NCBI GenBank assembly: GCA_963783385.1
Contig: CAWANJ010000001.1
Coordinates: 500,415 to 564,414, forward strand
Direction: 5' to 3'
Length of the DNA: 64,000 nt
Source of the DNA: an uncultured Gemmatimonadales bacterium
GTDB taxonomy: Bacteria; Gemmatimonadota; Gemmatimonadetes; Palauibacterales; Palauibacteraceae
Within the stretch, counting starts at the first letter, position 1, and every line of letters starts with the position of its first letter. Position numbers: made by a program. Of the stretch, positions 24,001-57,000 are shown piece by piece.

Positions 24001-27000
24001 TTCGTCCACGGCCAGGGAGGGGTCCGGGTTCCAGACCGGCCCCTCGAGGAGCGAATCCGGGAGGGAGTCCCTCCACACCGGGGCGAGCCGGATGGCTCCC
24101 GAATCGAGAACCGGCGTCGCCGGGCTGCGAACCACCGTGACGCCCCCCACGGTGTCGACCGTGCCCTCCCAGCGGGGTCCCCCGAGCTGGGAGATCATCC
24201 GACACCCCGACGCCACCACCCCGGCCAGCAGGACGAGGATCACGCCCCGGCCCGGAGCTCCCGGCCCTCCGCCCCCGATCACCTCAGTGGTGCCTGCCGT
24301 CCCGGGTCCACACGATGATCGTGGCGCACTGACCGGTGAAGCCACGGTAGACGAACTGCGGTGGCGTCTCCGAGCCGCTGCGGTAAATCTCCATGGCGAG
24401 GATGGCCTCGGGGGACAGGTCGTCGATCGCGAGGTTCGGCATCGGCTGGTTGTTCACCCAGATGAAGGGCGTGCACCAGCGCTGGCCCCGAGGCACCCTG
24501 ATGGAGGTGTGACCGACGGTCGACTCTCCGACCGAGATCCCCGGGAGTCCCCGGAGCAGATCCGCCGATTTGTTGGCGCGCTCTCGCTTCCTGTCGACCT
24601 CTGCCGGCGTCAGGAACACGCCCTGCCGGGAGCGGCGCCGGTTCTCGAACCCCGCCAGCCGGTCGATCGGGAGCATGTGACGCACCGTGACGTGGATGTC
24701 CTCGAGCTGGAGGACCGTCTCGCTGAGCATGAGCGTCGCCGTCGTGACCCGGTTCCCCTGCAGCGAGATGGGCACCGATTGGTTGGCGAAGCCGATGAGC
24801 CGGACGTGCAGCGTGTCGGGGCCCGCCGGCACTCCGGACAGGACGAAGTGGCCCGTGCTGTCCGTGTACGTGCCGACGCCCGCCTGCAGGAGCGAGACCT
24901 GCGCGTTGTGCAGGGGCCCGCCCGTCATGGCCGACACCACCTGCCCGCGAAGCACCGCCGTCGTGTCCTTCTCCGCAGCGGCCCCCTGGGCGACCATGTC
25001 CCTGGCGCCCAGGAAGATCGCGGCAGCCGCCAGGGCCGCGCACAGGAGGTAGCGCCCGGGTCCGGGCCCGGCCCGGACGATCGTCGTTGAGGTGCCCATG
25101 CGTACGCTCATCTCGACTGCCAGGCTCCGGAGGGTCGCGCGGTCCGCGAGGGGGCTCACATCGCCTGCAGCTAATATGGTCCTCGGCTCCTCCGGGTTCC
25201 CTGATGCACGAAGCGGGGATGCCGCCACAAAGGCGACACCCCCGCTCCGGTCCGGGCCGCCCTCCGGCCCCGAGGGGTCGGAGGGCTCACGCCGGCGCTC
25301 AGTCCGCCCGAAGCCCTAGGGCTGCGAGACGTCGCACATGCTGAGCTGGTAATTCGTGTTGTTCTGCTCGTTGAACGCGATCTGGAAAGCCACGTCCGTC
25401 CCGAACGTGCCGCCCTTGTAGTAGGGCCCGGACGGGAACACGTCGGCCTCGTTGCGCCCGTACTGCCGGATGAGCCGGCGCAGGTCGCCGAGCCGGTGGC
25501 CCGTGGCGTACAGCCAGAAGGCGCGCTCCCTGAACATCGTGTCCACGCGAGCAGCCGGAGTCCCTGGATCGGTGATCGCAGGCAGGCTCGTGGCCGTGAC
25601 CTGGTTCGAGAACCCGAAGTCGTTGGGCTCGGGCGGATCGTAGCGCGCCGCGAGCAGGTTCTGAACGTCAGCGCGCAGGGCATTCAGCTTGCTCAGCCAC
25701 GTGCCGGGGTCGCCGTTGTTGAGTGCCGCCTCGGCCTCGATCAGACGGGCCTCGATGCCATCGGCCAGGACCACGTTGGAGCCCTGGAGAGGATAGCGGA
25801 GGCCCACGTACTGCGGAATCGTCTGGTCGAAACCGCCGCTCGGATCCTGCGCCCACGGCACCCGCGGGTCGTTGGCCGACCGGAAGTTCAGGCCATTGCC
25901 GCCCGTACCGTCCGGGTCCGCCACGGCCGTACCCGCCTGACCGTTGGCCACCGAGTAGCGGCCGTTGCTCATCAGGTTGAAGATCGGGTTTTGGTCCGCG
26001 CTCACGGCGGCGTTGTGGTAGATGAGGAAGATGAAGTCGGTCGGCACGGACGACACCGCGGCCGCCGCCCCCGCGTAATCCCCGTTGTCCAGCAGCGCCC
26101 GCGCCTTACCGACCATGGCCAGGTATTTCCGCTGGTTGTCCTTGGCCGCCGAGATGGCGGCGTCGAACGTGTCCGCGGCGGCCGAGAACATCTGGGCCGT
26201 CGTCAGCGGAGTGCCCAGGTCGGTGGGCGCGAAGTTCTCCGTGCTGCTGAAGGGAATGTTGGAGCAGAAATTCTCGCCCATGGCCGTGTAGTCGTAGCCA
26301 ATGTAGCTCTTCAGCTCGCTGATCCGCGGATCAGCGGCCGACGCGTCGGCCATCAGCTTCTGCGCCGACACGGCCGAAGCGCGGGCAATGTGCAGGTTCC
26401 CGTACGCCGCGTCCGTCGTGTTGCCGTTCTGCGGCGTGAACTGGTCCCTCTGGTCGGTGTGCGTCCGGGTGCTGAACGTCCCGGACGAATACATCTCGTC
26501 CGTGAAGTCGGCCACCGTCGAGAGGATCTCGTCATCCAGCCCGTGGCCGCTGTAGGCCTGCTGGAAGTCCGACAGCGCTCCCGCGAACGCCACATCGGGC
26601 GTCAGGTTCGCCGGGGTGGCGCGCTCGGGATCGACCACCTGGAGCGCGTTCCCCTTGCAGGCTCCCGCGACGAGCGGGAGCCCGAGAGCCAGGAGCCAAA
26701 CCATCGGCAACCCGGCCCGGCCGTTATTTCGTGAAAGATATCTCATGGCTCTATCGTCCTCCTGCCTCAGAAGCTCACGTCGACGCGCGCCGTGAAGATC
26801 CGCGGAGCGGGCTGCGTGTTGAACTCACCCTGGTTGAACTGGGTGTTGCCGCCCTGCTCGATGATCTCCGGGTCGATCCCGTTGTAGCCCGTGAACGTAT
26901 GGAGATTCCGGGCCGCCAGCGTCAGGCTCAGGCCCCTCGTGAAGGGCATGGCGCTGGTCAGCGACTGCGGAGCGTTCATGCGGATCGACAGCTCCCGCCA

Positions 27001-54000: not shown

Positions 54001-57000
54001 GGATAGATCACGCTGGTTTCGGGTCTCGCCCCACCGACTCAACGCCCATTTCGGACTCGCTTTCGCTCCGGCTCCGCCGCAAAACGGCTTAGCCTCGCCA
54101 GTGAGGTCGAACTCGCCGGATCATAATGCAAAAGGCACGCGGTCAGAGATGCCGCCTCCGAAGAGACGACCCCTCCTCCCACCGCTTGTAGGCACACGGT
54201 TTCAGGGTCTCTTTCACCCGCCTCCCGGCGTGCTTTTCACCTTTCCCTCACGGTACTCGTTCGCTATCGGTCACAGGCTCGTATTTCGCCTTGGCAGATG
54301 GTCCTGCCTGCTTCGACCAGGATTTCTCGTGTCCCGGCCTACTCAGGATCCGGGCCCAGATCCTCACGACCCTTACGCCTACGGGACTCTCACCCTCTTC
54401 GGTCCGCCTTTCCAGACGGCTCGGCTTCCGGTCGCAAACACCCGGAAGATCGGCAGATCTCCCCGGCCCGCTCCTCCAACCCCACAAGGGCAACGGCTGC
54501 CGCCTTCTCCGCCCCCATGGTTTGGGCTCCTCCCCGTTCGCTCGCCGCTACTAGGAGAATCACATGTTGTTTCCTCTTCCTCCGGGTACTGAGAATGTTT
54601 CAGTTCCCCGGGTTCGCTCCTCGAGGCCTATCGTTTCAGCCCCGGGTGACCGCCCTCTCGGACGGCCGGGTTGCCCCATTCGGACACCCGCGGATCAACG
54701 CCTGCGTGCGGCTCCCCGCGGCTTTTCGCAGCTGACCACGTCCTTCATAGCCGGCCTGTGCCTAGGCATCCACCGTGCGCCTTCTGTCACTTGATCCCTT
54801 ACTCCTATCTCTACTCTCAACCTCGACGCTCTCGTGCCGGACGCTTCGCCCCCTACAGATCCGAAAACCCGTAGACGGAAAAGCCCCGCCCGGCTCGACT
54901 CGCTTCCCTTCCCTGCCTCGTTGTCAAAAAGCTCGTTGTTCCCATCACGGGCGGCCGCGAAGCGTTCCGTGGCGGGCCGGAAAACATAGCTGTCGGAGGG
55001 GGTGCGCGTCAACGGTGGGCGGGTCAGAAGCCCGGGAAGACGATGCCCGCCGCCACGGCCCGTTCGTGGCCTACCGTGGCGCCGATCCGCAGCCGCCACG
55101 CCAGGCGGAAGTCGAGGTCGGCGCCGAGGTCCAGGTCCAGGTGTAGCTCGGTGTGACCGCCGCCGCCGAACCGGCGTCCGGGGCCCGGCGAGGAGCCGCG
55201 CACCCGGAGATCCAGGGCGAGTCGGGGCTCGATGTAGGGAATGAGCCCCACGTCGCCCACGGCCAGCCGACGCCCGAACGAGAATGCCGAACGGAACCCG
55301 GACCACGACCAGGTTCAGGTCGGGCACGCTCCCGATGCCGACGCCGCTCCCCCACGCCACGTCGAGGGGGAAGCGGTCGCTGGCCCGGTACAGCGCCCCA
55401 CCGAGCTCGAGGCCGCCGCTGAGCCCCACGTGGCCGTCCGCGTCCTGGACCGCCGCCCGGAGTCCGTAGTCGACGACCCGCCCGGAGCGGCGCCAGGTAA
55501 GGAGCACGCCGAGGTTCCCACCGTCGGGGTCGGCCAGGTACAGGCCCATCCCGCGCTCGGAGTAGGGAGTCCAGAAGGAGGGTACGTCGAAGGCCTGGGC
55601 GTGGAGCGCGCCGCCCGGTCCGGGCAGGGCGGGACCCACACCGAGGAGCCCTGCCGCCAGCAGCAGGGCGATGGCCGGGGCGCAACGGACAGAGGGTCGC
55701 ATGATCTAGGGGCCCGCCCCGACCTCCCCCACTTCCTCGGCCAGCACGGTCACCTCGTCGTCGATAACCTGCAGGAAGCCATGGGCGATCCGGAGATGGC
55801 GCACCTCGCCGCCCGGACTCCGCACACGCAGCTCTCCCTCCCCGAGCAGGACCATCATGGGAGCGTGTCCCCGCAGGATCCCGACCAGCCCGTCGTAGGC
55901 GGGAGCCACCAGGCTGACCGCGTCGCCGTCGAAGCCCACGCGCTCGGGTGAGATCACCCGAACGTGCATCGAGCCGGATCCCGCGGGGCTCATGGGAGCG
56001 TACGCCCTGCGAAGCTCACGCCGCCTCGCTCTCGGCCTGTAGCCGCTCGGCCTTCTCCACCGCCTCCTCGATGCCGCCCACCATCTGGAAGGCCTGCTCG
56101 GGGAGGTCGTCGAATTCCCCGCCCACGACGCGCTCGAACGACTCGATCGTCGTCTCCAGCGGCACGTACTTGCCGGAGAGCCCCGTGAACTGCTCGGCCA
56201 CGAAGAAGGGCTGCGAGAAGAAGCGCTCGATCCGGCGCGCCCTGCGCACCACCACCTTGTCCTCCTCGGAGAGCTCGTCCATCCCGAGGATGGCGATGAT
56301 GTCCTGGAGGTCCTTGTAGCGCTGCAGGGTCTCCTGCACCCGCGTGGCCACGTCGTAGTGCCGCTCGCCCAGGTACTCGGCGTCCAGGATGCGGCTGGTC
56401 GACTCGAGCGGATCCACGGCCGGGTAGATGCCCTTTTCCACGATGGAGCGCGACAGCACGGTCGTCGAGTCCAGGTGGGTGAAGGCGCTGGCCGGGGCCG
56501 GGTCGGTGAGGTCGTCCGCCGGCACGTAGATGGCCTGCACCGAGGTGATCGAACCCTTGCTGGTCGAGGTGATGCGCTCCTGGAGGTCGCCCATCTCCGA
56601 GGCCAGGGTGGGCTGGTAGCCCACGGCGCTCGGCATGCGGCCCAGGAGGGCCGACACCTCGGAGCCCGCCTGGCTGAACCGGAAGATGTTGTCGATGAAC
56701 AGGAGCACGTCCTGTCCCATCACATCCCGGAAGTACTCGGCGATCGTGAGGCCGGTAAGCCCCACCCGCAGCCGGGCTCCCGGCGGCTCGTTCATCTGCC
56801 CGTACACGAGGGCGGTCGAGGAGAGCACCCCGGACTCCTTCATCTCGAGCCACAGGTCGTTCCCCTCACGGGTGCGCTCGCCCACGCCGCAGAACACCGA
56901 GCGGCCGCTGTGCTTTTGCGCGATGTTGTGGATCAGCTCCATGATGATCACGGTCTTGCCGACCCCGGCCCCGCCGAACAGGCCCGTCTTCCCGCCTCGG

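Follow-up and report, generated by a model that had tools for sequence, protein, structure and literature searches.

Split SusC/SusD, deoA and outer-membrane genes in a Palauibacterales metagenomic contig are best explained by context-specific long-read consensus errors

In a 64-kb window (the whole stretch of DNA analysed here, part of a 781,153-bp metagenomic contig from a Candidatus Palauibacterales population, Gemmatimonadota), five genes are each split across two reading frames: SusC1, SusC2, the SusD-like SusD3, deoA and a putative outer-membrane protein (OMP) gene. One member of every SusC/SusD pair is hit (3/3 pairs), exactly as first noticed from the sequence, which raises the question of whether these splits are features of the organism or of its assembly. 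The original prediction named two causes, assembly indel error and a biological one (surface uptake systems being pseudogenised or switched on and off), and leaned towards the second; the evidence favours the first. We conclude with high confidence that the five split genes arose from context-specific insertion errors in a long-read metagenome consensus, and not from switching or decay.

Results

Identity of the affected genes

SusC1, SusC2 and SusC3 carry the CarboxypepD_reg, Plug and beta-barrel domains of TonB-dependent receptors (Pfam PF13620/PF13715, PF07715 and PF00593, respectively). SusD2 matches PF12771/PF12741 and SusD1 matches PF07980 below threshold only, while SusD3, which had no Pfam SusD match, is a full-length paralogue of SusD1 (29% identity, E = 1e-29). 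The corrected deoA protein has Pfam domain matches. A Pfam search with the OMP returned no match; the label is putative and comes from reading the sequence, in which a putative signal peptide and, at the C terminus, ...FPGF were recognised.

Each split gene contains one extra base

The five splits themselves were confirmed: all are in minus-strand genes, the frame changes without a gene boundary, and translation resumes in the +1 frame at 5/5 sites, with flips of GC3 phase near 29.3, 36.3 and 38.1 kb. Each disruption is a +1 shift caused by a single extra base (29285, 36236, 38004, 47099 and 55283; Table 1), and deleting one base restores proteins of 1030 aa (SusC1), 1081 aa (SusC2), 475 aa (SusD3), 451 aa (deoA) and 225 aa (OMP), the same lengths as the genes called in sister assemblies. 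The corrected proteins are ~100% identical to those intact genes and show no decay, and the halves of each split gene keep the full GC3 coding signal and are free of stops in the frame they started from.

Table 1 Indels of the window relative to the assemblies compared. Extra bases are in single brackets; L-numbers denote assembly loci.
Feature	Position (strand)	Gene span or location	Context	Effect	Assemblies lacking the extra base
SusC1	29284..29285 (-)	26767-29860	minus-strand GCAT[T]CTCG	removal gives Plug-domain motif ...RGANSISLSNEPLVYIDG	L001, L003, L004, L005, L006, L018, L019; intact 1030-aa gene called there
SusC2	36235..36236 (-)	33796-37042	minus-strand CATCAC[C]GACG	removal restores ...GANGVVLITTKSGQSG	L001, L003-L006, L018, L019; intact 1081-aa gene called there
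SusD3 (SusD-like)	38004 (-)	37566-38994	minus-strand TCCC[G]ATCCTG	no neighbour duplicated	L018 (reads GGGAGTCCCATCCTG; intact 475-aa protein); L001 also in frame
deoA (thymidine/pyrimidine-nucleoside phosphorylase)	47098..47099 (-)	45855-47211	minus-strand CCAGA[A]TGTC = plus-strand CAT[T]CTGG		L001, L009, L035, L036, L037, L038; intact 451-aa gene called there
OMP (putative, 225 aa)	55282..55283 (-)	55024-55702	minus-strand GCAT[T]CTCG		8/8 short-read-type assemblies and the long-read contig
23S rRNA	54593..54594 (-)	51739-54796	GGAACUGAAACA[U]UCUCAGUACCC; insertion point GAACUGAAACA^UCU	extra U in conserved hairpin loop	L012, L009, L035
DUF1499 gene (127 aa)	1685 (+)	1306-1690	extra C one codon ahead of stop	...GQV-stop becomes read-through to ~1794	five short-read-type loci and L027; DUF1499 called in L028 to L032
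Spacer	54863 (-)	between OMP and 23S 5' end	minus-strand TTTT[C]GGATCTG		four short-read assemblies (present in long-read contig_37218)
Intergenic	45815	between 3' ends of PBP1A and deoA	extra G, GG to GGG		L036 and L037 (present in the long-read contig)
Intergenic 7-nt deletion	50740..50741			window lacks GATTCGG carried by all other assemblies	

The extra bases are missing from independent assemblies

In a comparison with other assemblies, of the kind proposed with the original prediction, the five extra bases are missing from all other assemblies covering each site, short-read-type and long-read, and the genes there are intact; the insertions at 1685 and 54594 are likewise missing from all others that cover them. 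The short-read-type assemblies belong to the same population (99.4-99.97% identity to the window) and number from 1 (SusD3) to 8 (OMP) per site. Assemblies compared came from JGI (3300032061, 3300036925, 3300031367 and 3300031256), NCBI (GCA_964593775.1) and seven Logan runs (SRR9710701, which is locus L018, SRR9700627, SRR8557214, SRR11829002, SRR28023651, ERR11594398 and ERR11523667). The sister species L001, 92.6% identical to the window, covers four of the five split-gene sites and is in frame at all four; a further Gemmatimonadota locus, L002 (56% protein identity), was too divergent to serve as a reference. Orthologues at 99.9%, 95% and 80% identity, like those at 92.6% (nucleotide) and 77-93% (protein), run through the sites in a single frame, the SusD1 paralogue aligns straight through the SusD3 site, and homologues of the OMP align across its site. 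The corrected OMP is an exact match to protein P0008, found in NCBI, JGI, Logan and ENA, and four Logan contigs match the window exactly for ~0.95-1.4 kb round the OMP site apart from the inserted T. Since the extra bases are absent from independent assemblies, they are almost certainly consensus errors.

What speaks against an artefact is that the window represents a genuinely distinct haplotype, with 93 private substitutions, and that no same-haplotype control, that is, a short-read contig with the window's private SNPs that would contradict the insertions directly, was found among the assemblies compared. An excess of the private substitutions at third codon positions (32/56, P = 2e-4) makes them look like real variation under purifying selection. 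The protein variants specific to the window are confined to one 781,153-bp contig, which continues through the rRNA genes; short-read contigs that approach these genes stop there (L001, L010, L011 and L036 to L038). This uninterrupted passage, together with the single-contig variants, points to a long-read origin of the window. Exact-protein searches with the window's own PBP1A (717 aa, 696 aa), 702-aa NYN protein and 78-aa OMP fragment gave no match, and ORF-based fragments of the split genes do not occur in the protein collection, since the gene caller chose start codons other than theirs.

Insertions are not confined to uptake genes

The list of five disruptions proved incomplete, as four further private 1-nt insertions are present (1685, 45815, 54594 and 54863), giving a tally for the 64 kb of nine 1-nt insertions versus zero 1-nt deletions against the references. 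The sole indel of another kind, the 7-nt intergenic deletion, may be a genuine strain variant. Against this fuller set, the supposed concentration in outer-membrane uptake genes was not significant in binomial tests, whether SusC/SusD genes were counted among all events (3/9, P = 0.31) or among CDS events (3/6, P = 0.17) or were pooled with the OMP (P = 0.13). Six of the nine insertions fall in CDS because ~85% of the window codes, and three fall in SusC/SusD genes because those genes fill 22% of the window. Coding DNA shows no deficit of frameshifts.

The atp operon, PBP1A, tyrS, aroB, fadD and folE are indeed free of indels relative to the references, as originally stated, but one insertion falls in 23S rRNA, which is better conserved than any other housekeeping gene of the window, deoA is itself a housekeeping gene and the DUF1499 gene loses its stop. 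The argument made in favour of biology was that assembly errors should also strike housekeeping genes; the insertions do strike such sequence. The extra U of the 23S rRNA is an insert state in the Rfam LSU alignment and shares its CAT[T]CTC context with SusC1 and the OMP; no on/off logic is applicable to such an insertion inside a 23S loop, where a real one would probably be deleterious. The spread of the insertions is uneven (1/9, at 1685, in the first 29 kb and 0/9 in the last 8.7 kb) and is not expected under a uniform error model, which counts against an artefact.

Most insertions share a short sequence context

Six of the nine insertions lie at CATC, the exceptions being 1685, 45815 and 54863. 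An identical change from SAGATG to SAGAATG accounts for four of the nine (chance P ~1e-12), and CATCTC/CATCTG, which is SAGATG on the opposite strand, is especially favoured. The rule is incomplete, since insertions occur at only ~14% of plus-strand GAGATG sites, and the hits at GAGATG/GTGATG sites are all in one orientation. An explanation by homopolymers or simple-sequence repeats was rejected: none was found at the insertion sites, where the runs affected span 1 to 2 bases and the longest run is 2-3 bases (2 bases in the five split-gene contexts, CAT[T]CTCG, CAC[C]GACG, CCC[G]ATCC, AGA[A]TG and CAT[T]CTCG), and three insertions duplicate no neighbour. Native GAGAATG/CAGAATG occurrences were also considered as errors and rejected: short-read-type references align without a gap at 63105 and 37417; at 53408 the long-read contig, which alone among close assemblies reaches this site, also aligns ungapped, and the sequence there agrees with the Rfam LSU consensus.

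A second long-read contig from the same population (ENA ERZ25039549 contig_37218) carries private insertions of its own at two further GAGATG sites (equivalent to window positions 29153 and 32935), and indels break up its atp operon, splitting the housekeeping genes atpB, atpA, atpG and atpD. At other loci the motif-specific insertion was seen in this second long-read assembly only; the short-read-type assemblies compared had none.

Discussion

We propose that nine spurious single-base insertions would have entered the long-read consensus within 64 kb, mostly at CATC and especially at CATCTC/CATCTG, perhaps because bases were over-called where a k-mer is modified or hard to read for another reason, and polishing left them in place; the attribution to a platform or basecaller is inferred. 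The pattern resembles the residual indel errors of nanopore/Flye-type metagenome assemblies, namely single-base indels that break ORFs, occur in one assembly alone, depend on context and are biased to insertion, as reported for Flye nanopore drafts (for example, 14,394 insertions versus 439 deletions; PMC8011154). The resemblance extends to the source contig, which is highly contiguous and spans rRNA genes, and to the sister long-read contig, which is worse affected. It differs from the classic nanopore weak spot, long homopolymers (PMC9262707), in favouring CATC/CATCTC, a preference suggestive of a basecalling bias that is specific to a k-mer or related to base modification.

The alternative that survives best is that the frameshifts are genuine and very recent in this strain, perhaps through a context-specific mutational hotspot, so that SusC1, SusC2, SusD3, deoA and the OMP gene are inactivated as incipient pseudogenes. 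The distinct haplotype, with private substitutions that look biological and no identical-haplotype assembly found to contradict the insertions, is compatible with this, as is the clustering of events in 29-55 kb. We nevertheless consider it quite unlikely, because it demands nine independent insertions with zero deletions, leaves coding sequence undepleted of insertions despite purifying selection on substitutions, places one event in a conserved 23S loop, and has to accommodate split halves free of decay, original-frame stops or GC3 loss, and a motif change found elsewhere only in another long-read assembly. Mismatch-repair-deficient hypermutation was rejected as a source: such deficiency should yield both insertions and deletions at homopolymers, and here there are insertions only, outside homopolymers. 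A sequence-specific process making real changes at CATC/SAGATG, such as error-prone repair at a modified motif, is very unlikely; if it did operate, it would stochastically inactivate genes, surface uptake systems included, in individual lineages, and the rarity of each lineage would hide the insertions from consensus short-read assemblies.

Phase variation, in which slipped-strand mispairing would reversibly switch surface uptake systems under phage or predation pressure, with one switch per SusC/SusD pair, is more improbable still. It has in its favour that SusC/SusD-type genes make up three of the five that are disrupted, one in each pair, and that a fourth encodes a putative outer-membrane protein, which recalls contingency loci and phase-variable outer-membrane genes. 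Unlike such loci, however, the window has no repeat tract at any site and no ON/OFF polymorphism is seen in the short-read-type assemblies, contigs from seven sequencing runs included, which hold only ON alleles; the SusC/SusD enrichment is not significant, and non-surface genes (deoA, DUF1499), 23S rRNA and intergenic DNA are struck equally by such insertions. Programmed +1 ribosomal frameshifting or transcriptional slippage giving full-length expression, which prfB calls to mind in that all five shifts are +1 and several share a short motif, is the least credible reading and already refuted by in-frame orthologues, as programmed sites are conserved in orthologues and these shifts occur in none, lack a stop-codon or Shine-Dalgarno-type frameshift cassette, and have counterparts in rRNA and intergenic DNA.

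Consensus error thus remains our explanation, and we caution that a biologically plausible pattern, with one hit per SusC/SusD pair and housekeeping genes seemingly spared, was here most probably the product of nine consensus errors tied to sequence context, brought to light by setting the window against independent assemblies and by the insertion in its rRNA gene. The CATC/CATCTC context may aid polishing of the window's assembly and, if the platform was nanopore, could mark a DNA-modification motif of the lineage. For the organism itself the disruptions carry little biological significance: judged from their sequences, the SusC/SusD systems, deoA and the OMP gene are almost certainly intact and functional in this Palauibacterales population.

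Single-base insertions and gene identities

The G+C content of the window is ~70%, and the coding frame is clearly marked across it by GC3 periodicity, the phase of which changes within unbroken coding signal at ~29.3, 36.3 and 38.1 kb. Frame continuity was read from translations of all three minus-strand frames, in which SusC1, SusC2, SusD3, deoA and a putative outer-membrane protein (OMP) gene all resume in the +1 frame. Since removal of one base mends each open reading frame (ORF), the core observation of the original prediction, that single-nucleotide frame disruptions split five genes, holds, each of the five lesions being the insertion of a single base. 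We regard the disruptions as very probably an assembly artefact and no real feature.

Positions of insertions and neighbouring features (window coordinates).
Feature	Position	Strand	Frame junction	Observation
SusC1 insertion	29285	minus	...IRIRGANSI then SLSNEPLVYIDG	base removed, 1030-aa ORF restored
SusC2 insertion	36236	minus	...GANGVVLIT then TKSGQSG	base removed, 1081-aa ORF restored
SusD3 insertion	38004	minus	...LQHLYDGA then ...PILLASGWEAQ	base removed, 475-aa ORF restored
deoA insertion	47099	minus	...GEVADYQ then MSALLMAVYFQG	base removed, 451-aa ORF restored
OMP insertion	55283	minus	...VRVPFGI then SFGRRLAVGD	base removed, 225-aa ORF restored
DUF1499 insertion	1685	plus		one codon upstream of stop; read-through
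Insertion	45815			intergenic
Insertion	54594			within 23S rRNA
Insertion	54863			spacer upstream of 23S rRNA
7-nt deletion	50740-50741			GATTCGG missing, between yceG-like gene and thiE
DUF1499 gene	1306-1794	plus		stop lost, ~35 extra codons
271-aa gene	24284-25099	minus		CarboxypepD_reg only
SusD1	25316-26746			lipoprotein downstream of SusC1
292-aa gene	30454-31332	plus		CarboxypepD_reg + Plug only
SusD3	37566-38994	minus		lipoprotein downstream of SusC3
23S + 5S rRNA genes	51490-54796	minus		no 16S rRNA or tRNA upstream
contig_37218 insertion	29153 (equivalent)			SusC1, GAGATG site
contig_37218 insertion	32935 (equivalent)			SusD2, GAGATG site

The gene labels mostly hold: CarboxypepD_reg, Plug and TonB-dependent barrel domains are present in each of the three SusC-like genes, SusD2 matches SusD-like families, and corrected deoA has three pyrimidine-nucleoside phosphorylase domains. 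SusD1 and SusD3, full-length paralogues at 29% identity, are divergent, with Pfam matches that are absent or below the SusD threshold; by sequence, the two seem to form a divergent SusD-like family within Gemmatimonadota. OMP has no family match, and the 3' junk tail of its frameshifted ORF runs over the 5' end of the 23S rRNA. Two genes adjoining the SusC/SusD pairs (292 and 271 aa) lack a beta-barrel; they are intact and conserved in all sister assemblies and are therefore not fragments of broken receptors.

Comparison with other assemblies

A single scan of species-representative genomes yielded the metagenome-assembled genome (MAG) contig L001, 92.6% identical to window positions 29020-51538, which has no extra base at any of the four sites that it spans; its remaining coding indels are compensated pairs and all others are intergenic. 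Exact-protein look-up recovered same-population contigs at 99.4-99.97% nucleotide identity from JGI metagenomes (3300032061, 3300036925, 3300031367 and 3300031256), an NCBI MAG (GCA_964593775.1), Logan assemblies of seven sequencing runs and ENA ERZ25039549 (contig_37218, 667 kb, long-read-style). Taken together, the short-read-type contigs span the entire window; wherever they cover one of the five sites they lack the extra base, and the genes are called intact there. The corrected OMP exactly matches a protein in NCBI, JGI, Logan and ENA, four Logan contigs match the window exactly over ~0.95-1.4 kb at this site except for the inserted T, and more distant homologues align across it without a break. 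One member of the protein cluster bears the label Candidatus Palauibacterales, which is an order of uncultured Gemmatimonadota (PMC10469786).

Relative to the references, all nine private 1-nt indels of the window are insertions, and its one other private indel is a 7-nt deletion in intergenic DNA; the deleted segment is kept by every other assembly, including contig_37218, and its loss may be a real strain variant. The DUF1499 lesion is a sixth coding disruption, outside the region and list originally reported. Housekeeping sequence had been thought spared, a premise that is false because one insertion falls in a conserved 23S rRNA hairpin loop, GGAACUGAAACA^UCUCAGUACCC: the extra U is an insert state in the Rfam bacterial LSU model, the surrounding conserved stretch matches perfectly, and both close assemblies that span the site lack this U.

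The supposed concentration in outer-membrane uptake genes does not stand out from chance. SusC/SusD genes occupy 14.0 kb (22% of the window), and at least three hits to them have P = 0.31 among nine events and P = 0.17 among the six in coding sequence (P = 0.13 for SusC/SusD plus OMP); given three hits in six genes, the chance that they fall in three separate pairs is ~0.2, a rough, uncomputed estimate. Events are concentrated at 29-55 kb, with position 1685 the sole outlier.

Sequence context and probable long-read origin

None of the insertions lies in a homopolymer. Four (SusC1, OMP, 23S rRNA and deoA) make the identical change SAGATG to SAGAATG, or CAT[T]CTC/G on the opposite strand (inserted base in brackets), and CATC also occurs at SusC2 (CATCAC[C]G) and SusD3 (CC[G]ATC, from CCATC). 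That four of nine random insertions would make SAGAATG from one of 60 SAGATG sites has P ~1e-12. Hits at GAGATG/GTGATG sites are in a single orientation throughout, with only ~14% of plus-strand GAGATG sites affected. CATC is absent at three insertions, two of which (45815 and 54863) are shared with contig_37218 and could be real variants.

Insertions aside, contig_37218 is 99.74% identical to the window over 21 kb, and it carries insertions of its own at two further GAGATG sites, where the window agrees with all short-read contigs. The motif-linked insertion is thus seen in two long-read-type assemblies, at loci that differ between them, but in no short-read-type assembly of the comparison, which is the signature of platform or consensus error. 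The consensus quality of contig_37218 is far below that of the window: hundreds of indels, in patches, break atpB, atpA, atpG, atpD and other housekeeping genes. These patches (window-equivalent 0-4, 10-16 and 56-62 kb; 95-98% identity) also fragment a peptidase_M19 gene and a Na/H antiporter.

Protein variants peculiar to the window are found on a single 781,153-bp contig in NCBI and ENA. We infer that the window comes from a long-read metagenome assembly because this contig traverses the 23S-5S genes, where short-read contigs nearing them stop (L001, L010, L011 and L036 to L038). Insertions dominate the residual errors documented for Flye nanopore drafts; one high-GC genome, for example, had 14,394 of them against 439 deletions (PMC8011154). 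The window, presumably from a long-read platform, has only insertions among its 1-nt indels. Upstream of the 23S 5' end lie OMP and the atp operon; contig_37218 has an identical 23S/5S layout, and the lack of a linked 16S rRNA gene is therefore probably a genuine arrangement in this Palauibacterales lineage.

Alternative interpretations

Genuine strain-specific pseudogenisation keeps a formal, if slim, chance, because the window has 93 private substitutions carried by no short-read assembly. Third codon positions are over-represented among them (32 of the 56 with clear phase, P = 2e-4), so the haplotype is truly distinct and under purifying selection; the window thus stands for a separate strain that co-exists in the population, and is not just a noisier copy. 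Pseudogenisation would need nine insertion-only, motif-specific, selection-blind events, one of them in conserved rRNA. Frameshifts are not rarer in coding sequence than elsewhere and no decay was seen in the split genes, a pattern hard to reconcile with real mutations. Phase variation of surface uptake genes fails its defining tests, since the insertion sites have no repeat tract and the short-read-type assemblies, including contigs from seven sequencing runs, have no ON/OFF polymorphism. Programmed +1 frameshifting fails because the orthologues are all in frame. Read as assembly artefacts, the split genes are of low biological interest.
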